Numbered from the stretch's first letter, positions 28,040-61,608 are shown. The stretch: DNA of 64,000 nt from Gammaproteobacteria bacterium (GCA_012026925.1 VEPJ01000073.1:6340-70339), one strand, 5' to 3'. The notes: a model not told the origin generated them from the sequence alone. Translations and numbers: made by a program.

Positions 28040-28066
28040 GGGTCGCTGGGTCCTCGGTCGGTGGGG

Positions 28067-31300: not shown

Positions 31301-31463
31301 GCGGCGCAAAGCTCGCGCGACGCCTCGATTCCTGCCGGCGCGAGTCGCCGTGGCAAATCCGACTGTCACAGGTACCGTCCCAGGTGTAAGAAACTGCTTT
31401 GGGAGGACAGGATTGGCGGCGCGCCGGCTACGGGCGCCGCTGGGCGTCCGCAGGGAGCGGAAG

Positions 31464-35410: not shown

Positions 35411-35427
35411 ATGCCGGGCCCCGGCCG

Positions 35428-35805: not shown

Positions 35806-35882
35806 AGGATTCTCCGGAAGTGGGACGAGGACATTCCTTCGGGACGCGAGGGAATGTCCCCATGCATGGTTTTACGAGTGGC

Positions 35883-36431: not shown

Positions 36432-37202
36432 ATGACGCCCGTGGCCGACCAGATGCCAGTGAAGCCTCCCGGACCGTCCCTGCTCGAGCGCGTCGAGGGT
36501 GCCGAGAAGCTGTTTCTGTCCGGACGCCGGCACCGCGAGGCGGACCTCGCCAGTGCCGTGCGTTTCTTCCTTGAGTTCCTCGAGGCATTCGAAAGCTTCG
36601 AAGCTACCGAGCCGTGCGTCACCGTCTTCGGGTCGTCGCGGTTCGACGAGAGGCATCCTTATTACCAGCGCGCCCGCGAGATCGGCAGCGCGCTCGCGAG
36701 GGCCGGCTATGCGGTGATGACCGGCGGCGGGTCGGGAATCATGGAAGCCGCGAACCGGGGCGCAAAGGAAGCCGGTGGCCTGAGCCTCGGCTGCAACATC
36801 CAACTGCCCCGCGAGCAGAAGCCGAACAAGTACCTCGACCGTTTCATCCAGTTCGAGCACTTCTTCGCTCGCAAGGTGATGCTCGTCAAGTACTCGCGGG
36901 CGTTCGTCGTCATGCCTGGAGGATTCGGCACCCTCGACGAGACGATGGAGATCGCGACGCTGATGCAGACGAACAAGCTGAACCACTTCCCGCTCGTCGC
37001 CGTGGGCCGGGATTTCTGGGACCCGTTCGAAACGTTCGTGCGCGAGGCGATGGTGAAGCTAGGAACCGTCAGCGAGGAGGAGTTCCGCGTGATCCACCGC
37101 GCGGAGACGGCGGAGGAAGTCGTCGCGCTGGTCCGCAACGGCAATGACGGGAAGGGGGGCAGTCCCCAAAAAGGGGACAGTCCCCATTTCCGTTCGGAAT
37201 AG
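36432..37202 (+). CDS. LOG-family (TIGR00730) nucleotide phosphoribohydrolase
   Basis: ATG at 36432. GGGSGIMEA and PGGFGTLDE signatures. The last ~17 codons and the TAG stop lie inside the palindromic element at 37149-37235. Confidence 0.85.
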   Translation: MTPVADQMPVKPPGPSLLERVEGAEKLFLSGRRHREADLASAVRFFLEFLEAFESFEATEPCVTVFGSSRFDERHPYYQRAREIGSALARAGYAVMTGGGSGIMEAANRGAKEAGGLSLGCNIQLPREQKPNKYLDRFIQFEHFFARKVMLVKYSRAFVVMPGGFGTLDETMEIATLMQTNKLNHFPLVAVGRDFWDPFETFVREAMVKLGTVSEEEFRVIHRAETAEEVVALVRNGNDGKGGSPQKGDSPHFRSE

Positions 37203-37235
37203 GGGACTGTCCCTTTCTTGGGGACTGCCTCCCTT
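37149..37235. repeat. palindromic intergenic element, copy 2 (GGGGACnGTCCCC sub-units)
   Basis: GGGGGCAGTCCCCAAAAAGGGGACAGTCCCCATTTCCG (left arm) pairs imperfectly with CGGAATAGGGGACTGTCCCTTTCTTGGGGACTGCCTCCC (right arm). It sits between convergent stops at 37202 and 37242. Confidence 0.85.
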
Positions 37236-37241
37236 TTCCCC

Positions 37242-39152
37242 TCAGCGGTCGAGCAGCGCGACGACGTTGTCGAAGCTGCGGGCGCGGGCGGCGTCGCTGG
37301 CGGCCACGCCATCCCGATTGCGCAGCTTGCGGCTGGCGCCCGCGTCGAGCAGCGCCTGCACGGTCTCCAGGTTGCCTGATTGGCTTGCAAGGATCAGCGC
37401 CGTGTCACCCAGGCGGTTCTGCCCATTCGCGTCGGCCCCTGCGGAGAGCAACCGGCGAACCGTACTGGCATGACCGCCCATCGCCGCAAGCGTGAGTGGC
37501 GTATCGCCGGAACGCGTCTTCGACGCAACGCTGGCGCCCCCGCGAACGAGCCGGTCCACCACAGCCGTGTGACCACGCGCGGCAGCGCAACCGAGCGGGG
37601 TCAAACCGTTCGAGTCCGCCGCGTCGATGGTCGCCCCCGCCTTGAGGAGCAGCGGAACGGTCGCCGCTGCGTCCGCGCAGGCGGCGTACCAGAGCGGCGT
37701 GCGTCCCGACGCGTCCGCCGCCGAGACCGTGGCCCGGGCGTCGATGAGCCGCGCTGCGATCTCGGCCTGGTCGCGCGCCGATGCGATTGAGAGCGCCGCT
37801 GCGCCAATCGAACTGTGCGCGTTCGGATCGGCGCCGGCCGCCAGCAGTAGCGACGCTGAACGAGCGTCACCGTTGTCGACAGCGATGAACAGGGGCGGTT
37901 CCGACGAGTTCGCGTGCGCGTTCGGATCCGCGCCGTGCTTGAGAAGAACCTCGAGCGCCGACGCGTGTCCGAGCTGCACGGCATACTGCAGAGCGGTCGC
38001 GCCCCGGGCATCGGTCTTCGCGACGCTGGCCCCTGCGCCTAGAAGCGCCGCAATCGACTGGCTCGAATCCGACGCGACGGCCACCATGAGGGCCGTCTGC
38101 CCGTCCGGCGCGGCCGCGTTCGGATCGCCGCCCTGGGCGAGCAGGTCGCGCAGGCGCGCCGGATCCTTCCGGGTTGCGGCGACTACCACGTCCGGCCAGC
38201 CCGCGTATGCGTCGGTCGCAGAACGAGGCAGCCGGTCCAGGGGTCCCGCAGCGCCCGTCGAAACCGGCGCCCGCACCGGCGCCGATCCCGCGGCGCGCAG
38301 ATCCTTCGACTGCTGTGCCCGACCGCTGCGGGCAGCGTACGCGAGCGCGGTGTTGCCACCACGATCCGTCGCCGTCACGCTCGCCTTCGCCTGCAGGAGT
38401 CGCGTGCAGGCATCGGGCGACTCGGCGGCGCACGCGAGCATCAATGGCGTCACGCCGTATCGATCCACCGCATCGACCTTCGCTCCGCGGGCAATCAGCA
38501 ACGCGACTGCCTCGTCCTCGCCGCCGTCGGCGGCGTGATGCAGGGCCGTGCGGCCGAAGTCGTCGGCGGAATTCACGCGCTCGGGCGTGGCAAGTGCCTC
38601 GAGCAGCGCCAGGTCACCGCGTCGCGCTGCCCTCCAGAATTCGGCCCGGCGCAACGATTCATCGGCCAGGCCGTCCTGCGGCCGGACTTCGAGAGGCAGG
38701 ACGCCCCGCTGGAGCAGGTCGCGCGCCGCCGGATCGCCGAGGGCCGCCGCTCTCTCGAGCCAGTGCCTGGCGCTGGCCGGATCACGTGGATCGCGCGTGG
38801 CGAACATGGCGGCCAGCGCGTAGGCCGCCCTCGCCTGCCCCTGGCCCGCGGCAGCCTCGAAAAGCTTCTGCGGCTGCCCCGGTTCGGACGCGGGCAAGAG
38901 ATCCGCGAGCAGCATCGAGCCCAGCAGGTACTTCGCCTCCGCGTCGTCACGCGCCGCCTGCTCGGACAGCAATCGCGCGGCGAGCTGGTAGTCCTTGACC
39001 CGGATCGCGGCCTTGGCGGGCTCGAGCGCGTCGGCCGAACGGGTCGGTTGCGCCGCCGGGGCGCTCGCACCGACCGCCCCCGCACACGAGCAGAGCAACA
39101 TCGTCACGAAGGTCGCAGCCGGCCGGACCGCGCGCCGCTCATGCCGTCCCAT
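37242..39152 (-). CDS. exported Sel1/TPR-like plus ankyrin-repeat protein
   Basis: Cys-containing signal region (FVTMLLCSCAGA). Sel1-like units (AEAKYLLGSM..., ARAAYALAAMF...), then about 11 ankyrin-type repeats (G.TALH.AA..G....V..LL..GA..). The start could be 39152 or 39101. Confidence 0.8.
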   Translation of the reverse strand: MGRHERRAVRPAATFVTMLLCSCAGAVGASAPAAQPTRSADALEPAKAAIRVKDYQLAARLLSEQAARDDAEAKYLLGSMLLADLLPASEPGQPQKLFEAAAGQGQARAAYALAAMFATRDPRDPASARHWLERAAALGDPAARDLLQRGVLPLEVRPQDGLADESLRRAEFWRAARRGDLALLEALATPERVNSADDFGRTALHHAADGGEDEAVALLIARGAKVDAVDRYGVTPLMLACAAESPDACTRLLQAKASVTATDRGGNTALAYAARSGRAQQSKDLRAAGSAPVRAPVSTGAAGPLDRLPRSATDAYAGWPDVVVAATRKDPARLRDLLAQGGDPNAAAPDGQTALMVAVASDSSQSIAALLGAGASVAKTDARGATALQYAVQLGHASALEVLLKHGADPNAHANSSEPPLFIAVDNGDARSASLLLAAGADPNAHSSIGAAALSIASARDQAEIAARLIDARATVSAADASGRTPLWYAACADAAATVPLLLKAGATIDAADSNGLTPLGCAAARGHTAVVDRLVRGGASVASKTRSGDTPLTLAAMGGHASTVRRLLSAGADANGQNRLGDTALILASQSGNLETVQALLDAGASRKLRNRDGVAASDAARARSFDNVVALLDR

Positions 39153-40446
39153 ACTTGGTCTCCACGTCGACGCCGATGCTGCGGAGGAAGTCCGCAGGGA
39201 GGATGCCGCCCGCACTGACGATGACCGCGTCGTTCGGGAGTTCGCGCTCCAACTCACCGCGGGCGACGAGCACGCTGTCCCGTTCGATGCGCTTCACTTC
39301 CGACCCGAACAGCACCTCGATGCGGCCGGACTGCATCGCGGCCATCGTGCGCTCGCGGTTGCGCGGCTTCGCCCGCGCGAAAGCCTCGCCACGATAGGAA
39401 AGCGTCACGGTCCGCGCGCCGGATTCAGCGATGCTGAGCGCCGCTTCGAGTGCGCTGTCGCCACCGCCCACGACGAGTACGTCCTGCCCGGCGTACTGCT
39501 CGGGATCAATGAGGCGGTAGACGACCTTGGGGAGTTCCTCGCCCGCCACACCGAGCTTGCGGGGCGTGCCGCGCCGGCCGATGGCGAGCAGCACGCTCGA
39601 CGTCCGGTACTCGGCCTTCGTCGTGCGTACCACGAAGCCGCTGCCCTGTCGCTGGATCGCCTCGACCCGTTCCCGGTAGCGGATCTGCAGTCCGGCCTTG
39701 CTCTCGATGTCCTGCCAGAAACCGAGCAGCGCCTCCTTCGAGGTCTGGCCGAAACGCATCTTGCCTGCGAGCGGCAGCGTGACGGGCGAAGTCATGACCA
39801 GCTTGGCGCGCGGGTACTGGAAGACGCTGCCACCGAGGGATTCCTGCTCGATCGTGGCGAACTTCATGCCGTGCGCCATCGCGGTCAGCGAGGCCGCGAG
39901 TCCCGCCGGACCCGCGCCGACGATCACGAGATCGAGTGCGTCGCCGCCGCGCGACCGACGCCCGTGAATCGCATCCACCGCCTGCTTGCCCTGCGCGAGC
40001 GCGTTGCGGATGAGGCCCATGCCGCCGAGCTCGCCGGCGATGTAGATCCCCGGCACCGACGTCTCGAAGTCGGGGCTCAGCAGCGGGATGTCCACCCCGC
40101 GCTTCGCCGAGCCGAACACGAGCGAGATCGCGTCGGCCGGGCACGCGGTGCGGCACGCTCCGTGGCCGATGCAGTCGGACGGGCTCACGAGCTGCGCCTT
40201 GTTGCCTATGAGCCCGAGCACGTGGTGCTCCGGCTGCTCCGGGCAGGCCTTCACGCACGACCCGCAGCCGATGCACTTCAGCGCGTCGATCACGGGATGG
40301 AGCGACACCGGCTCGGCGAGGCCCGCCGCAACGGCCCGGTCCCGCACGGCGACGTGCGTGCGCTCGGCCCGCTGGCGTCGGCCGAGGTACCAACCCCAGA
40401 TGACGGCCAGCGGTGCGCCGTACACCAGCAGGAACGCGTAGCTCAT
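39139..40446 (-). CDS. membrane-anchored 2x[4Fe-4S] ferredoxin-domain / FAD-NAD(P)-binding oxidoreductase
   Basis: N-terminal TM (AFLLVYGAPLAVIWGWYL). CIGCGSCVKACP and CIGHGACRTACP cluster motifs. Two dinucleotide-binding motifs (VIVGAGPAGLAAS and VLVVGGGDSALEAA), giving a thioredoxin-reductase-like layout. Confidence 0.8.
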   Translation of the reverse strand: MSYAFLLVYGAPLAVIWGWYLGRRQRAERTHVAVRDRAVAAGLAEPVSLHPVIDALKCIGCGSCVKACPEQPEHHVLGLIGNKAQLVSPSDCIGHGACRTACPADAISLVFGSAKRGVDIPLLSPDFETSVPGIYIAGELGGMGLIRNALAQGKQAVDAIHGRRSRGGDALDLVIVGAGPAGLAASLTAMAHGMKFATIEQESLGGSVFQYPRAKLVMTSPVTLPLAGKMRFGQTSKEALLGFWQDIESKAGLQIRYRERVEAIQRQGSGFVVRTTKAEYRTSSVLLAIGRRGTPRKLGVAGEELPKVVYRLIDPEQYAGQDVLVVGGGDSALEAALSIAESGARTVTLSYRGEAFARAKPRNRERTMAAMQSGRIEVLFGSEVKRIERDSVLVARGELERELPNDAVIVSAGGILPADFLRSIGVDVETKYGTA

Positions 40447-40633
40447 GGGGCGAGGACTCTAGCCGAGAGCCCCGCGACCGAGCAGCAGGAAACGACGCCA
40501 AATGAGAATTGCTGCTCACCAACGCGGTCACCGTTCACAGATTTGACAATTCGCGGCCTCGCCGCGGTGCATCGACGTCGCCCGCAACGTAGCCTCGGTA
40601 CCGCAAGAGCAATAACGGATCGGGAGAATCACC
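40447..40633. promoter_or_regulatory. divergent control region between the oxidoreductase operon and the multihaem operon
   Basis: The most AT-rich stretch in the neighbourhood. Consensus TTGACA hexamer at 40543-40548 (plus strand) and AAATGAGAATTGC at about 40499-40512, which resembles half of a Fur box. No convincing -10 element was seen. Confidence 0.3.
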
Positions 40634-41467
40634 ATGTCGACGGGTGCCATTGCGTCGAGCACGCGGAGCGGGTTCATACTCGGGCTGTCGGCCGGGGTCG
40701 TCCTCGCGTCGGCATTCTTCCTGCTCCGCGGCGAGTTGGCTGAACCCGCCCAGGCCGGCGCGAGCATCAGCGCCCAGACCGCGCCGACGACATCCGCCGG
40801 TTCGCACCCCATGGCGCCAGGCGGTGACAAGGCGGGCTCCATGGAAGCCGCGACCCTCGCCCTGAAGGCCCGTCTCGCTGCGAATGGCGGGCCCGACGAC
40901 CAGTGGGAACTGCTCGCGCAGTCCTACGACTTCCTCGGTCGCAGCGACGAAGCGAAGCTCGCCCGCCAGCACAAGGTCGCGGCGGGCAGTGATCTCCGCG
41001 ACACGATCGCGGTCAGCGCGATGATGCTGTCTGCAAGCCGCGGCACCGGCAGCGCAGCCTCGGCAGGTTCCGCGCCTGCGCCGTCGAACGACGCGGCTGC
41101 CCGGATCGCCAGCGCCGAACAGCATCGTCGCAACCGCGAGTTCAAGGAAGCGTGCGCCGACTATGCCGCCGTCGTGCGCCTGGGCGCCATGACCGCCGAC
41201 ACCTGGGCCGACTATGCCGACGCGCAGGCGTCCCTCGCCGGCCGTCTCGCCGGCGAGCCGGAGCAGGCCATTGCCAAGGCGCTCGCGCTCGACCCGCGGC
41301 ATACGAAGGCCCTGTGGCTGAAGGCGAGCCTCGCACACGAGCAGCACCGCTACACGGAAGCCCTCGCGACGTGGCGGCAACTGCTGGCGCTGGTGCCCGC
41401 GGGCTCCTCGGACGCCCGGATCGTCGAGGCGAACATCGCCGAAGCGACGCGGCTCGCGAAGAGCTGA
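40634..41467 (+). CDS. membrane-anchored TPR protein resembling the C-terminal (apocytochrome-binding) part of CcmI/CycH/NrfG
   Basis: One N-terminal TM (GFILGLSAGVVLASAFFLL). The segment LKARLAANGGPDDQWELLAQSYDFLGRSDEA and later TPR units (...DPRHTKALWLKASLAHEQHRYTEALATWRQLL). Confidence 0.55.
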   Translation: MSTGAIASSTRSGFILGLSAGVVLASAFFLLRGELAEPAQAGASISAQTAPTTSAGSHPMAPGGDKAGSMEAATLALKARLAANGGPDDQWELLAQSYDFLGRSDEAKLARQHKVAAGSDLRDTIAVSAMMLSASRGTGSAASAGSAPAPSNDAAARIASAEQHRRNREFKEACADYAAVVRLGAMTADTWADYADAQASLAGRLAGEPEQAIAKALALDPRHTKALWLKASLAHEQHRYTEALATWRQLLALVPAGSSDARIVEANIAEATRLAKS

Positions 41468-41476
41468 GGCGCATCC

Positions 41477-42457
41477 ATGTCGGCACGACTGCAGCGGCAG
41501 GAACTTCCTGCACTGGATGCGGCTGGCGCGGCCGCCGGTCCGGGCATCACGCCACGGCGTCCACGCCTCGAAGTCACTCGCACGTCGCCGCGCAACGTGG
41601 CGCAGAGGGCCCCCGTGGAGCCTCGGCGGCTGCGGCTCGACCCGACGTGGCTGTTCGTACTCGCGACGGTGGCCCTGCTCGCCTGGGGCTACCGATTTCC
41701 AACCGAGCGGTACATCACGCCGCAGACCGGCATCGGCTACGCGCTCGGGATCATCGGCGGCTCCTCGATGCTGCTGCTGCTCGTCTATCCGTTGCGCAAG
41801 CGCGTGCGCGCACTTTCGTTCATCGGCACGACCAGGCGCTGGTTCCAGGCGCACATGGTGCTCGGCATCGTCGGCCCGGTCCTCGTGCTATTCCACTCGA
41901 ATTTCAGCCTCGGCGCGACGAACAGCAACGTCGCGCTCGCCTGCATGCTCGTCGTGTCGGGCAGCGGCCTCTTCGGCCGTTACTTCTACGCGCGCATCCA
42001 CCACGGGCTGCACGGTCGTCGCGCGAGCCTGGCGGAACTGCAGGACTATGCCGAGAAGCTCCGCTGGGTGACGACCAACGTCGAGTTCCTGCCGGACCTC
42101 GTCGCGCGGATCGAAGCCGAGGAGCGCGGCATCGTCCGTCGCAGCGAGCGCCTGCCCCTGCTTGCCCGGCCGCCGGTCTGCGCCCTCGGCACCATGCTCG
42201 CGCGGCGCCGCCTGCGCCGATACGTGGTCCAGTCGCTGCAGGGCGCCGCCGGCGGGAGCGACGACCGGGGCCGCCGGTCGAGCCTGGTCGAAACGGCCGC
42301 CCGCTACATCGACGACCGGCTGTCCGCCACCCGCCGGGTGATCGAGTTCGCGGCGTTCGAGCGCCTGTTCTCGCTCTGGCACGCGCTGCACCTGCCGTTG
42401 TTCCTGATGCTGCTGATCGCCGGCGTCGTGCACGTCGTCGCGGTCCACGTGTACTGA
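41477..42457 (+). CDS. polytopic membrane protein with two H-x13-H pairs (ferric-reductase-domain-like dihaem b candidate)
   Basis: Starts 9 nt after the TPR gene. About 5 TM segments. QAH-MVLGIVGPVLVLF-H and ALH-LPLFLMLLIAGVV-H each have exactly 13 residues between the His, both within hydrophobic helices. Confidence 0.55.
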   Translation: MSARLQRQELPALDAAGAAAGPGITPRRPRLEVTRTSPRNVAQRAPVEPRRLRLDPTWLFVLATVALLAWGYRFPTERYITPQTGIGYALGIIGGSSMLLLLVYPLRKRVRALSFIGTTRRWFQAHMVLGIVGPVLVLFHSNFSLGATNSNVALACMLVVSGSGLFGRYFYARIHHGLHGRRASLAELQDYAEKLRWVTTNVEFLPDLVARIEAEERGIVRRSERLPLLARPPVCALGTMLARRRLRRYVVQSLQGAAGGSDDRGRRSSLVETAARYIDDRLSATRRVIEFAAFERLFSLWHALHLPLFLMLLIAGVVHVVAVHVY

Positions 42458-42474
42458 GCGGTGTCGGGACCCGA

Positions 42475-44037
42475 ATGCGACATGTGCGCCCTGTCCTCGG
42501 CCTGGTGGTCCTGATGCTGGCGAGCGCATCACCCCGATCCGCGCCGGCCGCCGGCCTCGAGACCCTCATCATGCCGGGCAAGGTCACGAGCGCGCACGCC
42601 AAGGTCGAGCAGGACTGCTCGCAGTGTCACGATCGCGCGGATCGCAGCCGGCAGGCGGCGCTCTGCATGAACTGCCACAAGGACGTCGCCGCGGATGTGC
42701 GCGCGCATGCCGGCTTCCACGGGCGCCTGCCGTCCATCGACACGGCGCAGTGCAAGGCATGTCATTCCGAGCACCTCGGGCGCGATGCGGACATCGTCAA
42801 GCTGAGCACGCCCGGGTTCGATCACTCGAAGACCGACTTCGCCCTCTCGGGCGCGCACTCGTCGGCCGACTGCGCCGCCTGCCACAAGCCCGGCCGCAAG
42901 TACCGCGAGGCACCGTCGGGCTGTTCCGACTGCCACCGTTCCGACGACCCGCACGGCGGGAAGCTCGGTGCGAACTGCGGCACGTGCCACGAACCGTCGG
43001 CATGGAATCGCGTTCGCTTCGATCACGACAAGACGCGCTTCGTCCTGCGCGACGCGCACCGGGACGTCTCCTGCACCGCATGCCACCCCGGCAACCAATA
43101 CGCCGGCACGCCATCGGCCTGCGCCTCGTGCCATGCGCCGGATGACGTGCACCGCGGCACGCGCGGCCAGGACTGTGCGAGCTGTCATACGACCGTCGCG
43201 TGGAAGACCTCGAAATTCGACCACGCGAAGGAAGCGCACTTCCCGCTGGCCGGCGCGCACGCGCAGCTCGACTGCAAGGGCTGCCATACGACCGCGAGCC
43301 TGAAGGATCCCCTGCCGAAGGACTGCATCGGCTGCCACCGCCCGGACGACGCTCACGCGACACGCTTCGGCACCGCCTGCGAGAAGTGCCACGGGACCTC
43401 GGCCTGGAAGCCGTCGACGTTCAGCCACACACGCGACGGCCGGTTCGAGCTCGTCGGCGGTCACGCGAAACTCGGCTGCACGGCGTGCCACACCGCGGTC
43501 GTGGCGCAGCAGAAGCTCGGCACGGACTGCGCCTCGTGCCATCGCACGACCGACGCTCATGCCGGCAAACTCGGCACGGATTGCGCCCGCTGCCACGGCG
43601 TCGAGTCCTGGCGTGCGGGCGTCACGTTCGATCACGACCTCGCGTCCTACCCGCTGGTCGGGCTCCACGTCGCGGTCCCCTGCCACGCATGCCACGCGAC
43701 GCCGGCGTTCAAGGGCGCTGCGCGCGACTGCAACGGCTGCCACCAGCGCGACGACCGGCACCAGGGCGCGCTCGGCAAGGACTGCGAAGCCTGTCATTCG
43801 CCGAACGGCTGGGCGCTCTGGCAGTTCGACCACGGCAAGGTGACGAAATTCGAGCTCACAGGCGCGCACGCGAGTGTCGCGTGCTCGGGCTGCCACAAGG
43901 AGCCTCCCGAGAAGGCGAAGCTCGACGGCGACTGCGCGTCGTGCCACTCGCGGGATGACGTGCATCTCGGCCAGTTCGGCCGCCAGTGCCAGCGCTGCCA
44001 CGGGACGTCCACGTTCAAGGGCGCGCGCCTGCAATAG
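42475..44037 (+). CDS. periplasmic multihaem c-type cytochrome with 21 CxxCH motifs (seven c7/c3-like trihaem modules)
   Basis: ATG at 42475, signal peptide MRHVRPVLGLVVLMLASA. I counted 21 CxxCH motifs in 520 aa. They are arranged as a repeated ~66-70-aa unit of the form FDH...F.L.GAH....C..CH ... C..CH..DD.H.G..G..C..CH. Confidence 0.9.
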   Translation: MRHVRPVLGLVVLMLASASPRSAPAAGLETLIMPGKVTSAHAKVEQDCSQCHDRADRSRQAALCMNCHKDVAADVRAHAGFHGRLPSIDTAQCKACHSEHLGRDADIVKLSTPGFDHSKTDFALSGAHSSADCAACHKPGRKYREAPSGCSDCHRSDDPHGGKLGANCGTCHEPSAWNRVRFDHDKTRFVLRDAHRDVSCTACHPGNQYAGTPSACASCHAPDDVHRGTRGQDCASCHTTVAWKTSKFDHAKEAHFPLAGAHAQLDCKGCHTTASLKDPLPKDCIGCHRPDDAHATRFGTACEKCHGTSAWKPSTFSHTRDGRFELVGGHAKLGCTACHTAVVAQQKLGTDCASCHRTTDAHAGKLGTDCARCHGVESWRAGVTFDHDLASYPLVGLHVAVPCHACHATPAFKGAARDCNGCHQRDDRHQGALGKDCEACHSPNGWALWQFDHGKVTKFELTGAHASVACSGCHKEPPEKAKLDGDCASCHSRDDVHLGQFGRQCQRCHGTSTFKGARLQ

Positions 44038-44048
44038 GAGGCCCGGAC

Positions 44049-47000
44049 ATGAGCAAGCTCCAACGGCTCGTCGTTCTATGCCTGCTGGCGATTGCGGGGC
44101 ACGGCGCTCTTGCACAAGGTGCAGGATCCAGCTTCGATCACGTCACGACCGGCTACGAGCTCACCGGGGCGCACCGTCTGCAGGCCTGCGAGTCGTGCCA
44201 CGTCGACGCCGTGTTCCAGGGCACGCCGCGTGCGTGCGCGGCCTGCCATTCGCAGGGTTCGCGCATCGGGGCCACGCCGAAGAACTCCGGCCACATCCGC
44301 AGCACCGAGCAGTGCGACGCGTGCCACACCACCTCGGCGTGGTCCCCGGCGACGCGCTTCGACCACGAGCAGACCCAGGGCACGTGCTCGTCCTGCCACA
44401 ACAACGCGCAGGTCTCCGGCAAGCCGGCCGGCCACATCGCGACGACCATGGAGTGCAGCGCGTGCCACGGCACCGCGGCCTGGAGCCCGTCGAAGTTCGA
44501 CCACGGCAGCGTTTCGGGCGATTGCGCCTCGTGCCACACGCCGGGCGGCACCGCCACGGCCAAGGGTCCTTCGCACCTGCAGACCAGCAACGCGTGCGAT
44601 GCCTGCCACACCGTCGGCGCCTGGGCGCCCACGGCGCGCGTCGACCACACGCAGGTGAGCGGCGCCTGCGCCTCGTGCCACGACGGCACGCATGCGAAGG
44701 GCAGGAGCACGACGCACATTCCGAGCGCGGACGGTTGCGAGTCGTGCCACTCGACCTCGGCCTGGCGCCCGGCGCGCTTCGACCACGCGGGCGTCACGGA
44801 GCGTTGCGTCACCTGTCACGACGGGACCAAGGCGACCGGCGTCGGCGCGAAGCACATCAAGGCCACGACGTCCTGCGACGCGTGCCACGCGACCGTCGCG
44901 TGGAAACCGGTGACCCGCGTGGACCACGCCAATGTGCTCGGCAGCTGCTCGTCCTGCCACAACGGCACGCTCGCCACCGGCCAGAGCGCAAACCACATCG
45001 TGACCCGCGCCGAGTGCGACAGCTGTCACTCGAGCACGGCCTGGAAGCCGGCGAAGTTCGATCACTCGGGGTACGTGAACAATTGCGCGAGCTGCCACGA
45101 CGGCACGCGCGCCAAGGGGAAGAACCCGACCCACCTGCGGACGACCGAATCGTGCGAGTCCTGCCACGTCATCGCCGGCTGGAAGCCTGTCTCCGCGGTC
45201 GATCACACGCAGGTGCTCGGGACCTGCTCTTCCTGCCACGACGGCACTGCTGCGACTGGCAAGTCCGCGAACCACATCCCCACCGACGGCGCGTGCAGCA
45301 ACTGCCACACCACGAATGCCTGGAAGCCCGCCAAGTTCAGCCACGACGGCGTGACGGCGACCTGCATCACCTGCCATGACGGCACTCGCGCGACCGGGAA
45401 GAGCACGACCCACATCCAGTCGAGCAACGGCTGCCAGGCCTGTCATTCGACGTTCAGCTGGCGCCCGGTCACGCGCGTCGACCATGCGCAGGTCACCGGC
45501 AGCTGCTATTCCTGCCACAACGGGACCACGGCGAGCGGCAAGCACTCCGCGCACCTGACGACCAGCAACGACTGCGCCGCGTGTCACGCGACCCAGGCGT
45601 GGAAGCCTGCCACGCGCGTCGATCACGCCAGCGTGCTCGGCACCTGCGGCAGCTGCCACGACGGGAAGATCGCCACCGGCAAGACGGCGAACCACATCGT
45701 GACCCGCGCCGAGTGCGGGGACTGCCACGCGACGTCGGCCTGGAAGCCGGCGCGGTTCGACCACTCCTCGATCACCGAGGCCTGCTCCGTGTGCCACGAC
45801 GGCGTCAAGGCCACGGGCAAGACCACGAGCCACATACCGACGACGGCCGAGTGCGGAACGTGCCACGCGACTGCGGCGTGGAAGCCAGCGCGGTTCTCGC
45901 ATGACGGCATCACCGCCGCCTGCATCACTTGCCACGACGGCGTCAAGCAGACGGGCAAGAGCACCACCCACATCCAGTCGACCGACGGCTGCCAGGCCTG
46001 TCACTCGACGACCGGCTGGCGCCCGGTCGTGAAGGTGGATCACGCGCAGGTGTCGGGCAGCTGCTACTCCTGCCACAACGGCACCTCTGCAACGGGCAAG
46101 AACGCGTCGCACATCCAGTCCACGAACAACTGCGCGGCTTGCCACGCGACGACGGCGTGGAAGCCCGCGACCTCGGTGGATCACGGCGAAGTGACCGGCA
46201 GCTGTTTCTCCTGTCACAACGGGACCTCAGCCAAAGGCAAGCCCGTCAATCACATCGTGAGCAGCGACGACTGCGCCGCCTGCCACACGCCGTCGGCCTG
46301 GAAGCCGGCGAAGTGGGACCACACGGGCATCGTGGACAAGTGCTCCAGCTGCCACGACGGCGTGAAGGCGACGGGCAAGACGGCGACACATCTTGCGACG
46401 ACCGCGACCTGCGAAGCGTGCCACTCGGTCTCGGGCTGGAGGCCCGCGACCCGCGTCGACCACGCGCAGGTGATCGGTACTTGCAGCTCCTGCCACGACG
46501 GCGCGAAGGCGCCCGGCAAGGGCCCGAACCACATCCCGACGACGTCGGAGTGCGGCAGCTGCCACACGACGCTTGCATGGAAGCCGGCGAACTTCACCCA
46601 CGCCGGCATCACGTCGGGGTGTGCCACCTGCCACGACGGCATCAAGGCGACCGGCAAGTCGGCCACGCACCTCTTCACGAGCGCTGCGTGCGAGGCCTGC
46701 CACTCGACGAGCGCGTGGAAACCCGCGACCCGCGTGGATCACGCGCAGGTGCTCGGCACCTGCTCGAGCTGCCACAACGGCGCGAAGGCCACCGGGAAGC
46801 CCGTCAATCACATCGTCACCAACGCCGAGTGCGGCAGCTGCCACGGCACGACCGCATGGAAACCCGCGACCGGCTTCGACCACTCGGGCGTCACGGGCAA
46901 CTGCTACAGCTGCCACGACGGCGTCAAGGCCACGGGCAAGGGTGCGACACACATCACGACCGACACCAGCTGCGAGAGCTGCCACGCGACGAGCGCCTGG

Positions 47001-48311
47001 AAGCCGGCCCTGCGCGTCGATCACGGCCACGTCTCCGGCACCTGTTCGACCTGCCACAACGGCACGACGGCCACGGGCAAGGGGACGAACCACATTCCGA
47101 CCACCCAGGAGTGCGGCAGCTGCCACTCGACGCTGGCATGGGTGCCTGCGAATTTCACGCACACGGGCATCACCTCGAACTGCTCGAGCTGCCACGACGG
47201 CGTGAAGGCCACGGGCAAGAATGCTGCCCACATCTTCACGACGGCCGTCTGCGAAGCGTGCCATGCAACCTCGGCGTGGAAGCCGGCGACCCGCGTGGAT
47301 CACGCGCAGGTGCTCGGCACGTGCTCGAGCTGCCACAACGGCTCGAAGGCGACCGGCAAGCCCACGAACCACATCACTACGTCGGCCGAGTGCGGCAACT
47401 GTCACTCGACCACCGCGTGGAAGCCGGCCACGGGCTTCACGCACGACGGCATCACCGGCAACTGCTACAGCTGCCACAACGGCGTGAACGCCGGCGGCAA
47501 GAGCGCCACGCACCTGCAGACGAGCAACCTCTGCGAGTCGTGCCACTCGCCCGCCGGCTGGAAGCCCGCCGTGCGCGTGGACCACAGCCAGGTGATCGGC
47601 AGCTGCTACTCGTGCCACAACGGCACGAACGCCACCGGCAAGAACGCCACGCACATCACGAGCGACACGAGCTGCGACGCCTGCCACACGACGACGGCCT
47701 GGAAGCCGGCGGCGCGCGTCGACCACAACCACGTCACGGGCACGTGCTCGAGCTGCCACAACGGCGTGCAGGCGCCGGGCAAGCCCACCAACCACATTCC
47801 AACGACGCAGGAATGCGGCGTCTGCCATTCGACCCTCGCCTGGCTGCCGGCCGCCTTCGACCACACCGGCGTGACGAGCGGGTGCAGGAACTGCCACAAC
47901 GGCACGACCGCGAGCGGTCCGTCCACCGGCCACATGACGTTCCCGGTCAACAACTTCGACTGCAACAAGTGCCACACGACGACGGCCTGGTCGCCCAACA
48001 CGTTCAGGCACCTCGCCGGCGGCGGCTACCCCGGCGACCATCGCGTCGCGCTGACGTGCACGAGCTGCCACACGACCAACACCGATGCCGCCACCTGGCG
48101 CGCTCCCGCCTACAAGCCGGACTGCGCGGGCTGCCACGCGAGCCGTTTCAAGCCCGACCCGCACAAGAAGTACGGCGACGTGAAGTACACGGTGAGCGAG
48201 CTGCGCAACTGCTCCGGCGCATGCCACATCTACACCGACTCGACGCTGACGACGATCGCCACGCGTCGCTCGGGCCCGCAGCACCGCATCACCGACACGG
48301 AATTCCACTGA
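44049..48311 (+). CDS. giant secreted multihaem c-type cytochrome with 58 CxxCH motifs
   Basis: ATG at 44049, 11 nt after the 21-haem gene. Signal peptide MSKLQRLVVLCLLAIAGHGALA. I counted 58 CxxCH motifs in 1420 aa, mostly in ~47-aa dihaem units of the form AWKPA.RVDH..V.G.C.SCH.G..A.GK...HI.T...C..CH. Confidence 0.9.
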   Translation: MSKLQRLVVLCLLAIAGHGALAQGAGSSFDHVTTGYELTGAHRLQACESCHVDAVFQGTPRACAACHSQGSRIGATPKNSGHIRSTEQCDACHTTSAWSPATRFDHEQTQGTCSSCHNNAQVSGKPAGHIATTMECSACHGTAAWSPSKFDHGSVSGDCASCHTPGGTATAKGPSHLQTSNACDACHTVGAWAPTARVDHTQVSGACASCHDGTHAKGRSTTHIPSADGCESCHSTSAWRPARFDHAGVTERCVTCHDGTKATGVGAKHIKATTSCDACHATVAWKPVTRVDHANVLGSCSSCHNGTLATGQSANHIVTRAECDSCHSSTAWKPAKFDHSGYVNNCASCHDGTRAKGKNPTHLRTTESCESCHVIAGWKPVSAVDHTQVLGTCSSCHDGTAATGKSANHIPTDGACSNCHTTNAWKPAKFSHDGVTATCITCHDGTRATGKSTTHIQSSNGCQACHSTFSWRPVTRVDHAQVTGSCYSCHNGTTASGKHSAHLTTSNDCAACHATQAWKPATRVDHASVLGTCGSCHDGKIATGKTANHIVTRAECGDCHATSAWKPARFDHSSITEACSVCHDGVKATGKTTSHIPTTAECGTCHATAAWKPARFSHDGITAACITCHDGVKQTGKSTTHIQSTDGCQACHSTTGWRPVVKVDHAQVSGSCYSCHNGTSATGKNASHIQSTNNCAACHATTAWKPATSVDHGEVTGSCFSCHNGTSAKGKPVNHIVSSDDCAACHTPSAWKPAKWDHTGIVDKCSSCHDGVKATGKTATHLATTATCEACHSVSGWRPATRVDHAQVIGTCSSCHDGAKAPGKGPNHIPTTSECGSCHTTLAWKPANFTHAGITSGCATCHDGIKATGKSATHLFTSAACEACHSTSAWKPATRVDHAQVLGTCSSCHNGAKATGKPVNHIVTNAECGSCHGTTAWKPATGFDHSGVTGNCYSCHDGVKATGKGATHITTDTSCESCHATSAWKPALRVDHGHVSGTCSTCHNGTTATGKGTNHIPTTQECGSCHSTLAWVPANFTHTGITSNCSSCHDGVKATGKNAAHIFTTAVCEACHATSAWKPATRVDHAQVLGTCSSCHNGSKATGKPTNHITTSAECGNCHSTTAWKPATGFTHDGITGNCYSCHNGVNAGGKSATHLQTSNLCESCHSPAGWKPAVRVDHSQVIGSCYSCHNGTNATGKNATHITSDTSCDACHTTTAWKPAARVDHNHVTGTCSSCHNGVQAPGKPTNHIPTTQECGVCHSTLAWLPAAFDHTGVTSGCRNCHNGTTASGPSTGHMTFPVNNFDCNKCHTTTAWSPNTFRHLAGGGYPGDHRVALTCTSCHTTNTDAATWRAPAYKPDCAGCHASRFKPDPHKKYGDVKYTVSELRNCSGACHIYTDSTLTTIATRRSGPQHRITDTEFH
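44150..47900 (+). repeat. in-frame tandem coding repeats (~141-nt dihaem units with a higher-order 561-nt block)
   Basis: The periodic ...TGCCAC... pattern and the recurring GCCTGGAAGCC/GTCGACCAC strings are visible throughout. An identical 33-mer lies at 46727-46759 and 47288-47320. Confidence 0.85.
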
Positions 48312-50695
48312 TGCGGCCCGGCACCCAAAGGCTCGCATCGCTCGCACTGCTTGCGCTGCTCGCGGATCCGGCGGCCGCGCAGGTCGCCGGGCGGCTGGTC
48401 GACGAGGTCAGCGTCGGCGAGCAGGATGGCTACGCGACGGTCACCTTCGTGTTCGGCTGCAACGTGCAGTACGTGAGCCACGTACCGGCCAGCAGCGGTG
48501 ACACGGTGCGAGTACGGCTCGTGCCGGGACCGGACTGCGGGTCGCCCGCAGCGGGCTGGATCGTGCCACCGCCGCTCGACCCCCGCGGCGTGATCCGCGC
48601 GGTGGACGTCGACCGCACCATGGGCCGCAACGTGGACCTCGCGATTCGCTGGTCGAAGTCGGAGCAGTTCGTGCTGGTTCCATCGACGAACCGGCGGGGC
48701 CTGCGAATCCTGCTCGTGCGGCCCGAGGCGGACCGCTCCAGCGTGAGCGTGAAGGAGGTGACCGGCAGCGTCTCGGTCTATGCCGTCAATCTCGACGCTT
48801 CGCAGCAGCCGTACGACGCGGCCTCCATCGCAGCGGCGCAGCAGGTGACCGGAGTAAGTGCCTACGTCTCGGAGACCACCGTCGACGGGCAGAAGTGGTA
48901 CCGGTTGCGCGCCGGTCCGTTCGTCGCCGAGTCCGATGCGCGCAAGGTCCTGGTCGCTGCGCGCACCCGCTACCCGAAGGCATGGCTCGCGGTGTCCGAC
49001 GACCCGAAGATGAGCAAGACCGGGCTGCCGGATGCGGTCGGCAGCGTGCAGACGGTCGCGACTCCCGGCAATGCGACGCTGACCCAGCAGGACATCGACC
49101 AGACGTTGAAGCGCGCGCAGGAGATGATGCGGCGCAAGGACTACGTCGTCGCGATCCAGCTGCTCACGCGCCTGACGGAGCAGCCCGAATTCCCGCAGCG
49201 CGCCGAGGCCCAGGAACTGCTGGGACTGGCCCGCGAGCGCAACGGCCAGCTCGCCCACGCGAAGGCCGAGTACGAGGAGTATCTCCGGCGCTATCCGGAT
49301 GGCGACGCGGCCGACCGCGTGTCGAAGCGATTGCGTGCGATCACGTTCGCGGCGAGCCCAGCCAGCGCCCAGGCGCGGACGGCTGCTGCGGACGAGTCGA
49401 AGTGGAAGGTCTACGGTGGCATATCCCAGACCTATCGCCGGGACTCGAGCACGTTCGACAACGGTACGGTGTCGAGGAATTCGACCACGCAGGACGCGAT
49501 CCTGAACGACGTGGCGCTGGCCGCGCGTCGCAGCGGCGAGCGCTACGACGTCGCGGTGCGGGTGAGCGGTGCGTACGGCATCGACATGATGTCGGACGGC
49601 CCCGGCAACCAGGGCACGCTGACGCTGCTGTTCGCGGAGCTCCGCGACCGCGTGCTCGACTGGACGGTGCGCGGCGGTCGCCAGTCGGGCAGCCTCGGCG
49701 GATTGATCGGTACATTCGACGGCCTGTATGGCGGCTACCAGGTCGCGCCGAAGTTGCGCCTCAACGCGTACCTCGGCTACCCCGTCAATTCCGCGCGCTC
49801 GGCGCCCTCCTCGGACCAGACGTTCTACGCTTTGTCCGCCGACATCGGCACGTTCGCCGAGGCCTGGGATCTCTCGCTGTACGCGATCGACCAGACCTAC
49901 ACCGGGTACACGGACCGCCAGGCGATCGGCACGGAGCTGCGCTACTTCCGGCCGGGCCTGACGTTCGTCGGTCTCGCCGACTACGACATCCACTTCGGCG
50001 ACCTGAACGACGTACTGCTGCTCGGCACGGCAGCGCTCCCCGCCCGCTGGACGATGAGCGTGAATTACGACCATCGCAAGAGCCCGGGACTGAGCCTGCG
50101 CAATGCACTGATCGGGCAGCCCGTGCGCACGTTCGACCAGCTGTTCGACCTCTTCTCTGCGTCGCAGATCCAGCAGCTGGCACAGGACCGGACGGCGGCG
50201 TCAGACACCTACACCTTGTCGCTGTCGAGGCCGTTCGGCGAGCGCTGGCAGTGGTCACTGGACCTCTCGGGCATGAGCATCAGCGGGACGCCGGCGTCGG
50301 GCGGCGTCGAGGCGACGGCGCCTTCCGGCACGGACTACATCGTCTCGTCACAGGCGCTCGGCTACGGGCTCTTCGGGCGCGGCGACGTGTCCTCGCTCGG
50401 CTTGCAGTACCAGACCGGAGAGGCGACCGATACGATCTCGCTCGGCCTCTACACGCAGCTGCCGGTCGGGCAGATGTGGCGCCTGAGCCCGCGGATCCGG
50501 TTCGACCAGCGCCAGTTCCACACCGACGGATCGACTCAGCTGCTCTACGCGCCCGGGCTGCGCGCCGAGATGCGCTGGCAGAGGTTCTGGCTCGAACTCG
50601 AGGGCGGCGCCGAGATCGGTCAGCGTTCGCTCGGCGACTCGAGCGCCGACACCACCCGCTATTACTTCAGTCTTGGATACCGCTATGACCTCTGA
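48311..50695 (+). CDS. outer-membrane protein with signal peptide, SPOR-like domain, TPR-like segment and C-terminal beta-barrel
   Basis: ATG at 48311 overlaps the cytochrome TGA (TGATG). Signal peptide LALLALLADPAAA. SPOR-like YAVNL...DGQKWYRLRAGPFVAESDARKVL. TPR-like KDYVVAIQLL...AEYEEYLRRYPDG. Then ~430 aa of alternating amphipathic strands ending YYFSLGYRYDL. Confidence 0.7.
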   Translation: MRPGTQRLASLALLALLADPAAAQVAGRLVDEVSVGEQDGYATVTFVFGCNVQYVSHVPASSGDTVRVRLVPGPDCGSPAAGWIVPPPLDPRGVIRAVDVDRTMGRNVDLAIRWSKSEQFVLVPSTNRRGLRILLVRPEADRSSVSVKEVTGSVSVYAVNLDASQQPYDAASIAAAQQVTGVSAYVSETTVDGQKWYRLRAGPFVAESDARKVLVAARTRYPKAWLAVSDDPKMSKTGLPDAVGSVQTVATPGNATLTQQDIDQTLKRAQEMMRRKDYVVAIQLLTRLTEQPEFPQRAEAQELLGLARERNGQLAHAKAEYEEYLRRYPDGDAADRVSKRLRAITFAASPASAQARTAAADESKWKVYGGISQTYRRDSSTFDNGTVSRNSTTQDAILNDVALAARRSGERYDVAVRVSGAYGIDMMSDGPGNQGTLTLLFAELRDRVLDWTVRGGRQSGSLGGLIGTFDGLYGGYQVAPKLRLNAYLGYPVNSARSAPSSDQTFYALSADIGTFAEAWDLSLYAIDQTYTGYTDRQAIGTELRYFRPGLTFVGLADYDIHFGDLNDVLLLGTAALPARWTMSVNYDHRKSPGLSLRNALIGQPVRTFDQLFDLFSASQIQQLAQDRTAASDTYTLSLSRPFGERWQWSLDLSGMSISGTPASGGVEATAPSGTDYIVSSQALGYGLFGRGDVSSLGLQYQTGEATDTISLGLYTQLPVGQMWRLSPRIRFDQRQFHTDGSTQLLYAPGLRAEMRWQRFWLELEGGAEIGQRSLGDSSADTTRYYFSLGYRYDL

Positions 50696-51269
50696 CACGA
50701 GTCGTTTGCAACGACGCTTGCGTCCAGTCGTCGCGCTCGCCATCGCGCTCGCCGCCGCGTCGTGTGCTTCGGGACCAGGCCAGGACGTCGCCAGTCGCAC
50801 GGGGGCGGCGGCCGATGCCCGCGCCACCGTCGCTTACGGCACACTCGTCTTCGCCCGCGAGCGGCCGGAACTGGCAGCCCACGCCCGCGATTACCTGACA
50901 CTCGTGCCGGTCGCCGTCGGGCCCGCCGGATCGCAGTCGCTGTACTTCTACGGCTACGTCTGGTCGACCATCGACAAGCGCGGGCTGCGCGCCTCGGACG
51001 ACGCAGCCGGCCAGTTCGAGTTGATCGCCGATGATCGGAGGATTCCGCTCGCTCCGGTCCAGGCCACGCCCGATGAACTGGGATTGGCCGTGCCGCCCGT
51101 GCGCGCGCCTTCGGGCTCCGCCCGGCTACTGATCGCCGCGACCAGCCGCGAGACGCTCGAGTTCCTTGCTGCAGCGGGCAAGGTCCGCGCCGTCCGTGTG
51201 GACGGCGATAAGGCAGAGCGTTACGAGCTCTGGTCGGGCAACCCCGACTCGCTCCTCGCGATGCGATAG
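50685..51269 (+). CDS. lipoprotein of unknown function (last gene of the multihaem operon)
   Basis: ATG at 50685 overlaps the barrel gene by 11 nt. Lipobox-like ALAAASC. No motif recognised. Confidence 0.5.
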   Translation: MTSDTSRLQRRLRPVVALAIALAAASCASGPGQDVASRTGAAADARATVAYGTLVFARERPELAAHARDYLTLVPVAVGPAGSQSLYFYGYVWSTIDKRGLRASDDAAGQFELIADDRRIPLAPVQATPDELGLAVPPVRAPSGSARLLIAATSRETLEFLAAAGKVRAVRVDGDKAERYELWSGNPDSLLAMR

Positions 51270-51331
51270 GAAAGAAGGTGCCATTCACCGAATTTCCGAC
51301 TCGGAAATTCGGTGAATGGCACCTATTTTCC
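51269..51331. repeat. palindromic intergenic element, copy 3 (perfect 24-bp arms)
   Basis: AGGTGCCATTCACCGAATTTCCGA (51276-51299), C, then TCGGAAATTCGGTGAATGGCACCT (51301-51324). It lies exactly between convergent stops at 51269 and 51331 and shares GGTGCC and ATTTCCG strings with copies 1 and 2. Confidence 0.9.
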
Positions 51332-55561: not shown

Positions 55562-55565
55562 GGCG

Positions 55566-56540: not shown

Positions 56541-56549
56541 GCGCTTCTC

Positions 56550-57905: not shown

Positions 57906-57908
57906 GGA

Positions 57909-59108: not shown

Positions 59109-59121
59109 GTGTCAGGACCGC

Positions 59122-59577: not shown

Positions 59578-59584
59578 GGTGTCC

Positions 59585-61302: not shown

Positions 61303-61304
61303 GG

Positions 61305-61595: not shown

Positions 61596-61608
61596 GGCGA
61601 CCTCCTTA

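Follow-up and report, generated by a model that had tools for sequence, protein, structure and literature searches.

The PCC3 type of porin–cytochrome cluster, the described system closest to the locus analysed here, was published as four genes feeding the quinone pool, which encode a porin, an extracellular multihaem cytochrome, a periplasmic multihaem cytochrome and an inner-membrane protein of ~300 residues (He et al. 2017, PMC5566968). The extracellular cytochrome has a median of 34 haems (range 10–85, with examples of 63 and 85), while the periplasmic one has a median of 21 (21, 24 or 27), a low ratio of residues to haems and internal repeats. The inner-membrane protein has five helices, with an SGxxG motif on transmembrane (TM) helix 4 and WX3HX13H motifs on TM3 and TM5, and was likened to the ferric-reductase/NOX domain and to cytochrome b; the examples include Slit_0867–0870 and Slit_1446–1449 of Sideroxydans lithotrophicus ES-1 and clusters of Leptothrix cholodnii SP-6 and Amphritea atlantica (PMC5566968). 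A Riftia-symbiont PCC3 protein is reported to have 66-residue repeats and 21 haems, and 22 transmembrane regions are predicted for the Leptothrix porin. FAD, ferredoxin, ankyrin and TPR are not mentioned by He et al. (PMC5566968).

We analysed a stretch of 64,000 nucleotides from Gammaproteobacteria bacterium (GCA_012026925.1 VEPJ01000073.1:6340-70339; hereafter the window; ~69% GC), in which an earlier note, made from the sequence alone, had described a candidate trans-envelope electron conduit. The locus consists of eight genes, A to H. An exported Sel1/ankyrin protein (A) and a membrane-anchored Fe–S flavoprotein (B) are encoded on the minus strand, and a TPR protein (C), a five-helix inner-membrane protein (D), two multihaem cytochromes (E and F), an outer-membrane barrel protein (G) and a probable lipoprotein (H) on the plus strand. 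The conduit reading is reasonable, but the core of the locus is a known, predicted PCC3 system and not a new architecture; what the locus adds is the Fe–S flavoprotein/ankyrin module formed by B and A.

Comparison with PCC3 and other electron conduits

Genes D to G (41477–50695), spaced by 1–17 nt or overlapping, carry every published sequence hallmark of PCC3, and their order (inner-membrane protein, periplasmic multihaem cytochrome, second multihaem cytochrome, porin) is that of Slit_1446–1449. As in PCC3, a five-TM protein of ~300 residues with SGxxG and two WX3HX13H motifs is followed by a 21-haem cytochrome of ~66–68-residue repeats, a many-haem partner rich in Thr, Ser, Ala and Gly with ~25 residues per haem, and a predicted 22-strand barrel like that of L. 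cholodnii. Judged by these published sequence criteria, the D-E-F-G core is a PCC3-type porin–cytochrome cluster. The resemblance to PCC3 seen in the earlier note thus stands, but its view that the parts list differs from PCC3 largely does not. The dihaem, NOX-like reading and the giant cytochrome (up to 63 and 85 haems) are already in He et al., so that, with D to G agreeing with PCC3, neither the NOX-like dihaem idea nor the 58-haem subunit is new, and the SPOR domain on the barrel is a clade-level trait. The one real difference is the pair formed by the conserved Fe–S/FAD-NAD(P) flavoprotein B and the ankyrin/Sel1 protein A, which are linked to the core here and in most sampled relatives, far beyond this lineage. 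Further additions belong to the clade of the window, namely the CcmI-like TPR protein C, the lipoprotein H, and a beta-sandwich and SPOR domain on the barrel. A literature search found no paper joining PCC3 with an ankyrin protein, and the link of B and A to PCC3 is not described in the literature searched; it is a real addition to the known PCC3 core.

The closest parallel in print is the Ptd operon (ptdABCDEFG; bioRxiv 10.1101/2023.11.21.568154), the function of which is stated to be 'completely unknown'. [quoted passage not shown] However, its cytochromes are penta-, tetra- and decahaem proteins, no giant cytochrome or ankyrin protein is listed, and the flavoprotein is separate from the Fe–S protein, which carries a cyclic-nucleotide-binding domain. 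Ptd appears to resemble the PCC4 type of He et al., and the window locus, with 21 + 58 haems and a fused Fe–S flavoprotein, does not have the Ptd/PCC4 composition when the two are compared by description. The membrane proteins of PCC3 and PCC4 have no significant overall sequence similarity (PMC5566968).

As is proposed for the window locus, MtrCAB, MtoAB and PioAB place a periplasmic multihaem cytochrome, sheathed by a barrel, in contact with an outer cytochrome, and F shows a weak resemblance to MtrC domain II/IV and to decahaem models of the DmsE/MtrA type. The systems differ in haem number (10 + 10 versus 21 + 58), in the barrel (26 strands of the MtrB family versus 22 strands with TPR), in the lack of a lipobox in F, and in electron entry, which uses CymA-type quinol dehydrogenases there versus a putative dihaem b protein and a flavoprotein here. 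The match of E to DmsE is marginal (16 bits), F passes TIGR03508 only when 10 repeat matches are summed, and G has no MtrB-family Pfam match, while none of its 50 best Foldseek matches is to a chain that is described as part of an Mtr system; the locus is accordingly not placed in the MtrCAB type.

In NOX, FRE and STEAP proteins and in MsrQ–Fre, electrons move outward across the membrane on two stacked bis-His b haems, supplied by a flavin/NAD(P)H module in the cytoplasm, and in MsrQ–Fre the flavin reductase is a separate protein. The principle of a cytoplasmic flavin input to a dihaem membrane relay would be the same in the window locus. Nevertheless, D has five TM helices rather than six, with no Pfam Ferric_reduct match and no significant fold match, the putative donor B is FNR/TrxR-like (ferredoxin–NADP reductase; thioredoxin reductase) with a fused ferredoxin domain instead of FAD_binding_8/NAD_binding_6, and the acceptor would be a haem c wire rather than O2, Fe(III) or MsrP. 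The Geobacter Pcc system (OmbB–OmaB–OmcB) likewise joins a porin with a periplasmic octahaem cytochrome and an outer lipoprotein cytochrome, but it has other haem numbers and no dedicated inner-membrane or cytoplasmic module, and no search found a sequence relationship to it.

Gene linkage and the components of the cluster

Linkage was examined in a close set of 82 D-anchored, Steroidobacterales-like loci (the closest 80 of at least 560 species genomes with D-family matches, together with two added individually, one on a contig already scanned) and in a distant set of eight loci (L083–L091, with L087/88 taken as one locus) whose D homologues are 36–45% identical and whose GC content is 37–63%. 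The A–H set keeps its order and orientation across the D-anchored loci, while the outer flanks differ, so that the eight genes are kept together as one unit. Among close loci with enough flank, B was found in 74 of 77, A in 65 of 69 and G in 63 of 66. Both B and A adjoin the core in seven of the eight distant loci, divergently upstream in L084, L085, L086, L087/88 and L091, downstream on the same strand in L083, and convergently downstream in L090. We also scanned in reverse, anchoring on B in metagenomes (at least 590 matches, 80 loci kept). Here, D and E stood beside B in all 18 loci that had at least ~2 kb upstream and ~5 kb downstream, and a fourth arrangement, B-A-D-E on one strand, was seen. 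Such linkage, kept through four arrangements and found in both directions of search, strongly indicates that the PCC3-type system includes B and A as components. The survey of gene neighbourhoods that the earlier note had proposed finds its gene set together among the close relatives. Among the matches listed, the closest homologues belong to metagenome-assembled genomes of Steroidobacteraceae-like bacteria, and a single large sampling project supplied many of these; a profile search for distant homologues returned only 'Gammaproteobacteria bacterium' and Thalassolituus as organism names, and one protein encoded at L087/88 is listed by NCBI under Thalassolituus oleivorans, a cultured species.

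No other protein of the set is as well conserved as B, which has 50–60% identity in distant loci versus 36–45% for D and 38–48% for E. It matches Pfam Pyr_redox_3 (2.2e-43) and Fer4 families, and its nearest solved structures are 7a76 and 7a7b (YpdA/Bdr, 1e-29 to 1e-27), followed by thioredoxin-reductase-like FNRs. Its two-Rossmann FAD/NAD(P) flavoprotein domain fits the TrxR-like FNR/YpdA group and is without the CxxC redox disulfide of true thioredoxin reductases. At 166 bits against a cut-off of 340 in the NCBIfam YpdA model, B is a relative and not an equivalog. All seven cysteines lie within the ferredoxin domain (CxxCxxCxxxCP and CxxHxxCxxxCP), so B is not a disulfide reductase. In the second ferredoxin motif (residues 92–103, CIGHGAC...CP), His replaces the second Cys in 78 of 80 homologues, which points to a His-ligated or 3Fe cluster as the last of the Fe–S chain. 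Because of this substitution, the description of B as a 2x[4Fe-4S] protein is borne out for the two ferredoxin motifs but not strictly for a second [4Fe-4S] cluster. In the B proteins of L083 and L087, the first motif also lacks its second Cys. The GAGPAG (GAGPxG), GGGDSA and CIGHGAC motifs are conserved in distant loci, and the conserved GGGDSA and SYR...R...K motifs are compatible with pyridine-nucleotide binding and, as in TrxR, would bind NADPH. All lineages keep a hydrophobic helix at the N-terminus, with a basic patch after it, and there is no Tat or Sec signal. We propose that B may be a membrane-tethered electron-input subunit facing the cytoplasm. The neighbouring protein A has a strong Pfam Ank_2 match (4.6e-74), a weak Sel1 match and an N-terminal signal peptide, the last present also in all distant homologues, in line with its earlier description as an exported Sel1/ankyrin protein divergent from the cytochrome operon. 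A is probably a periplasmic scaffold or assembly factor.

D carries W122-x3-H126-x13-H140, S163-G-x-x-G167 (S163GLFG) and W301-x3-H305-x13-H319. In alignments of 41 and 69 diverse homologues, the Ser, both Gly, the second Trp and all four His are invariant, and the first-motif Trp is near-invariant (at least 90%). The AlphaFold2 (AF2) model, with a predicted local distance difference test score (pLDDT) of 79, has TM helices at 56–73, 85–100, 119–140, 148–175 and ~297–325, and a helical domain of ~120 residues (helices 185–257) that is predicted to be cytoplasmic; the N-terminus and loops are rich in Arg. The modelled helices and the positive-inside rule put the N-terminus, the loop between helices 2 and 3 and the 120-residue domain in the cytoplasm, which would place the H126/H305 level near the cytoplasm and the H140/H319 level near the periplasm. 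This layout has the geometry of two stacked bis-His haems, and we infer from the model that D may be a dihaem b relay. Near-invariant residues R168, Y171, H175, G177, L178 and G180 were also seen at the cytoplasmic end of helix 4, beside the inner His pair. This patch could be a quinone site, or a docking or electron-entry site for B.

Searches for known relatives of D were negative throughout. No Pfam or NCBIfam match was found, a PDB sequence search with the family profile gave nothing below E 0.15, and Foldseek with the AF2 model gave a best E of 0.41, with cytochromes b6 and b561 appearing only at E ~2. We therefore dropped the idea that D is a structural homologue of NOX or cytochrome b. 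The ferric reductase domain (FRD; Pfam PF01794) has no match in D, which has five helices versus six; as only the pattern of His pairs, on helices 3 and 5, is common to both, D may act like an FRD but is not a demonstrable member. Fusions of a D-type protein to Fe–S or flavin domains were sought among long homologues and none was found, weak SPOR matches in two being the only additions there. The family comprises 2521 clusters at 50% identity (E <= 1e-3), and a search of a plasmid collection gave one marginal match. Some homologues of D (P0405, P0442, P0451 and P0273) are named 'transcriptional regulator' or 'pyridine nucleotide-disulfide oxidoreductase' by NCBI. For a five-helix membrane protein such names appear to be mistakes of annotation, and because of them surveys could miss the family.

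E has a signal peptide and 21 CxxCH motifs in a 17-18-33 spacing (a 68-residue trihaem rhythm), with 24.8 residues per haem. Its c7-like trihaem repeats match Pfam Cytochrome_C7 (2.4e-31), and of the 62 loci that were parsed, 61 have exactly 21 haem motifs, as does every distant locus. F was described as having 58 CxxCH motifs; 58 haem motifs are indeed present, of which 57 are CxxCH and one is CxxxCH (CSGACH, residue 1388), and with the 21 of E they make up the 79 c-haem motifs reported for the locus. The motifs of F are spaced by 23–24 residues (24.5 residues per haem), and its composition is rich in T (13.7%), S (9.6%), A (12.1%) and G (9.2%). Given such regular spacing, with 57 CxxCH in 1420 residues of F and 21 in a triplet rhythm in E, chance is not an issue. 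F matches Pfam C7 (2.1e-67) and MtrC/MtrF II/IV (5.1e-43) and is weakly similar to chain A of PDB 6r2q (3.8e-5). A conserved N-terminal segment and a C-terminal cap (NYPGDHR...PDCAGCH...C-x3-CH) enclose a variable run of ~47-residue dihaem repeats, and these caps are kept in distant homologues. Among loci, the F region has 12–58 haem motifs per open reading frame (ORF). A constant 21 haems in E and a variable number in F fit a fixed periplasmic span with a free outer end. F has no lipobox and is presumed to be the outer or extracellular wire.

C was called CcmI/NrfG-like in the earlier note. The Pfam evidence is below threshold (TPR_CcmH_CycH, 5e-06, 26.9 bits against a cut-off of 42; NrfG, 4.2e-06), but BLASTP aligns C with the TPR part of CcmI in L084 at E 4e-13, with 35% identity over 70% of C, and the L084 ccmI gene ends a complete ccm operon at the same position that C occupies in the window. 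With more than 50% coverage, C was found in 43 of the 82 close-set loci and in one distant locus, L084. From this similarity, C is probably a CcmI-like chaperone for very long apocytochromes. In L084, the genes of the flavoprotein and of the PCC3 membrane protein flank the complete ccmABCDEFGH-ccmI operon (2779–9996); L087 has ccmF and a redoxin gene after the cluster.

The AF2 model of G (pLDDT 76) comprises a signal peptide, a beta-sandwich (30–136), a SPOR domain (157–228), TPR helices (259–361) and a 22-strand beta-barrel (365–793) with a helical insert (592–626), in agreement with the earlier call of a SPOR-TPR beta-barrel. The SPOR assignment (PF05036) scores 23.4 bits against a cut-off of 21, with a predicted E-H-E-E-H-E order of secondary structure across 157–228, and PF05036 is precomputed on most close G homologues; the Pfam TPR matches are weak. 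The TPR and barrel parts are universal, including in the distant loci, whereas the beta-sandwich and SPOR domain occur only in the window clade and L084. Foldseek returned only generic porins and ushers at low TM-score, with PelBC at rank 36, and G was accordingly accepted neither as an MtrB-like barrel nor as a polysaccharide exporter. A protein 100% identical to G is present in Logan run SRR8536199. The signal sequence of H ends in AAAS-C, a lipoprotein-type ending, and H is probably the lipoprotein that had been described. It has no Pfam or NCBIfam match and was found in 53 of the 82 close-set loci but not detected in the distant loci. A small exported protein is encoded between the second cytochrome and barrel genes of L090 (14148–14663, 171 residues) and L091 (14461–14928, 155 residues). 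Judged by position, it may be the counterpart of H, which instead follows the barrel gene.

Organization of the locus and its surroundings

Reading frames were set by translations, start contexts and third-position GC. The eight genes form two divergent operons, 37242–40446 (−) and 40634–51269 (+), each closed by a terminator-like hairpin, and with these hairpins the unit extends over 37173–51323 (Table 1). All eight genes are present as originally described, with the six plus-strand genes tightly packed and B and A divergent from them. The gaps are 9 nt (C–D), 17 nt (D–E) and 11 nt (E–F), and the overlaps 1 nt (F/G), 11 nt (G/H) and 14 nt (A/B). The start at 39139 given in the earlier note, by contrast, leaves out A, which the note's own text describes.

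Table 1. Positions of the genes and control elements of the locus in the window
Feature	Coordinates	Strand	Details
Terminator-like hairpin 3' of A, probable end of the B-A operon	37173..37185	(-)	GGGGACTGTCCCC then T-run, 57 nt past A stop
A: exported Sel1 + ankyrin-repeat protein, 636 aa	37242..39152	(-)	Pfam, signal peptide, linkage
B: membrane-anchored ferredoxin-domain + FAD/NAD(P)-binding flavoprotein, 435 aa	39139..40446	(-)	
Divergent control region, 187 bp	40447..40633	.	three motifs conserved among relatives
C: membrane-anchored CcmI/NrfG-like TPR protein, 277 aa	40634..41467	(+)	
D: PCC3-type inner-membrane protein, 326 aa, five TM helices	41477..42457	(+)	
E: 21-haem periplasmic cytochrome c, 520 aa	42475..44037	(+)	
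F: 58-haem cytochrome c, 1420 aa	44049..48311	(+)	
G: outer-membrane SPOR-TPR-barrel protein, 794 aa	48311..50695	(+)	
H: probable lipoprotein, 194 aa	50685..51269	(+)	no known family
Perfect 20-bp-stem palindrome, putative bidirectional terminator	51277..51323		between H and convergent acyl-CoA dehydrogenase gene

The divergent spacer between B and C is 187 bp long, as first stated, but not AT-rich in itself, as its GC content is 61%; it is AT-rich only relative to the ~69% GC genome. Aligning the B–C spacers of eight related loci revealed three motifs, CCAAATGAGAATTGC at 40498, CACAGATTTGACA at 40536 and CGTAGCCTC at 40588, the first of which extends to CCAAATGAGAATTGC.GCTCA.CAA and contains an ATGAG...CTCAT inverted repeat. 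The three motifs (40498–40596) are candidate operator or promoter elements. We looked for a sigma-70 consensus promoter in this region and found none. A Fur box was considered and set aside: the half-sites resemble TGATAAT but sit 5 nt apart instead of 1, and iron regulation is therefore not claimed.

Outside the unit lie a LOG-type (Lysine_decarbox) gene and the acyl-CoA dehydrogenase gene (51331–53280, −), which is convergent to H; cyanophycin-metabolism and Tad-pilus genes are found further out. The latter form a Tad/Flp-type set (53406–63138, −) encoding a TPR protein, two T2SSF proteins, a T2SSE ATPase, a ParA/TadZ-like ATPase and a secretin with a pilus N-terminal domain. As an export route for F, this set was rejected. 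The convergent acyl-CoA dehydrogenase gene intervenes, and in L002, the only further locus in which the region beyond H was examined, a gene for a TonB-dependent receptor stands in place of the Tad set, so the Tad genes are treated as unrelated. On the other side, genes for cyanophycin synthetase, a Peptidase_S51 (cyanophycinase-type) protein and an amidohydrolase stand in a row (23931–29323, −). Since Peptidase_S51 and amidohydrolase genes also lie upstream of the cluster in L001, this is local synteny with that genome. ORFs of 1050 residues (31350–34502, +) and 461 residues (34478–35863, −) are putative genes with no Pfam match at E <= 1e-5.

Direction of electron flow and its meaning

We see about an even chance that the locus is an extended PCC3-type trans-envelope conduit carrying electrons outward from cytoplasmic NAD(P)H. 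B, tethered to the cytoplasmic face, would take hydride from NAD(P)H onto FAD and release single electrons through its two fused ferredoxin-type clusters to D, in which they would cross the inner membrane on two bis-His b haems, from H126/H305 on the cytoplasmic side to H140/H319 on the periplasmic side. E would form a fixed-length 21-haem rod bridging the periplasm; decahaem MtrA is estimated at ~100 Å (PMC5566968), and scaled from this length E could span the compartment. The 22-strand barrel of G would pass through the outer membrane, with SPOR and TPR holding it to peptidoglycan and partner proteins. Electrons would then pass from E, through or at G, to F, a variable-length wire of 58 haems here, and on to an acceptor beyond the cell, for example Fe(III)/Mn(IV) oxides, humic material, another cell as partner or O2. 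A would serve as scaffold or assembly factor, C as CcmI-like chaperone and H as a clade-specific lipoprotein. The roles given to the parts in the earlier note (flavoprotein input, dihaem-type relay, periplasmic and outer cytochromes, barrel and CcmI-like chaperone) hold as predictions on this comparative evidence. With rather more doubt, we suggest that PCC3 in most carriers may be a six-component machine, in which an obligate membrane-tethered ferredoxin–FNR partner completes a split NOX-like NAD(P)H dehydrogenase that pushes electrons outward via two b haems, the 21-haem rod and the 12–58-haem wire, together with a periplasmic ankyrin/Sel1 scaffold.

Direction was said to be unreadable from the sequence. 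As a matter of demonstration this stands, yet an NAD(P)H-type cytoplasmic input makes outward flow likelier on thermodynamic grounds. Flow from NAD(P)H at about −320 mV to the haems is favoured, also by the inside-negative membrane potential, and inward flow to NAD(P)+ is uphill in both redox and electrical terms. Several points nonetheless weigh against outward flow from NAD(P)H. Ferredoxin-type Fe–S clusters can lie below NAD(P)H in potential, and FNR-type enzymes are reversible. D has no detectable sequence or fold kinship with NOX/FRD, cytochrome b561 or cytochrome b, the sole footing for its b haems being the four invariant His, and the Y171/H175/G177/L178/G180 patch may bind quinone, in keeping with the proposal of He et al., instead of serving for docking. 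F is without a lipobox and no export route was identified for it, so that its extracellular location is an assumption. In L089 (distant) and L029 (close), a four-gene core stands without B or A within 10 kb; either D may work without them or B and A are elsewhere in those genomes. The linkage sample consists of Gammaproteobacteria-like loci only, with the canonical iron-oxidiser clusters of ES-1 and Leptothrix outside it, and papers from 2022–2026 describe PCC3 as functionally unverified.

The model published by He et al. 2017 (PMC5566968) and assumed by later papers runs the other way: F and E would oxidise extracellular Fe(II), minerals or a cathode, D would reduce quinone, and B and A would be accessory. 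PCC3 is present in several iron oxidisers, cytochrome b has the same 13-residue spacing of His on two of its helices (PMC5566968), quinone could bind at the conserved Tyr/His patch where TM4 ends on the cytoplasmic side, and L089 and L029 are without adjacent B and A. However, both PCC3 clusters of ES-1 are down-regulated rather than induced on Fe(II), unlike what is predicted for an Fe(II) oxidase, and a magnetite study of ES-1 found PCC3 proteins at low to middling abundance percentiles, one never being detected. The carriers sampled here are Steroidobacteraceae-like, Woeseiaceae and Thalassolituus-type lineages, which are not known iron oxidisers, and the two-way link to a cytoplasmic NAD(P)-type flavoprotein has no role in inward uptake. 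To reduce NAD(P)+ with electrons of Fe(II) over a haem relay that lacks coupling would run against both redox and membrane potential. We regard inward uptake as rather unlikely. Still less probable is an outward conduit in which quinol, giving its electrons to D, is the main source; B would be a secondary or conditional input, or a maintenance reductase that holds the relay in the reduced state, A would be a periplasmic assembly factor, and the conduit would serve reductive Fe/Mn acquisition or redox balancing rather than respiration. Its anatomy would be identical to that of the NAD(P)H-fed conduit, core-only loci occur (L089 and L029), He et al. drew the ferric-reductase analogy (PMC5566968), and the analogous Ptd cluster has been suggested to reduce iron (bioRxiv 10.1101/2023.11.21.568154). 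Against it, B is the most conserved protein and is almost never apart from the core, which argues for a central and not an optional role, and by inspection the conserved control region has no Fur-box-like site with the correct spacing.

We consider it very improbable that the genes do not form one machine, with the barrel being a TPR-type polysaccharide or protein exporter and the flavoprotein/ankyrin operon a mere neighbour. A TPR domain joined to a barrel is indeed also the layout of the BcsC, PgaA and PelB exporters, and PelBC appears in the Foldseek list, but the structural likeness is generic and does not favour exporters. Across genomes of 37–63% GC and through rearrangements, the genes for the barrel and the cytochromes remain together, and A to H stay together while the flanks beyond them vary. 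An ordinary exporter or porin unrelated to the cytochromes, which the earlier note had named as an outcome that would overturn its proposal, is thus disfavoured, and the NAD(P)H-fed outward conduit remains our preferred reading.

PCC3 holds some of the largest multihaem cytochromes known and is widespread (~2,500 membrane-protein clusters at 50% identity), but it has gone nine years without an assigned function, and the role of Fe(II) oxidase assumed for it has found no support in studies of expression in iron oxidisers. If the reading proposed here is wrong, the locus is one more PCC3 cluster. The conserved NAD(P)H-type flavoprotein gives PCC3 a concrete, testable hypothesis with a stated direction of flow, which rests on comparative inference, and Thalassolituus oleivorans is a cultured species with an NCBI-recorded protein of this family. 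If the hypothesis is true, a large group of Gammaproteobacteria of soil and sea, aerobic or facultative, could unload reducing power on minerals, humics or partners by a route that has gone unrecognised, with a bearing on Fe/Mn cycling and bioelectrochemistry.

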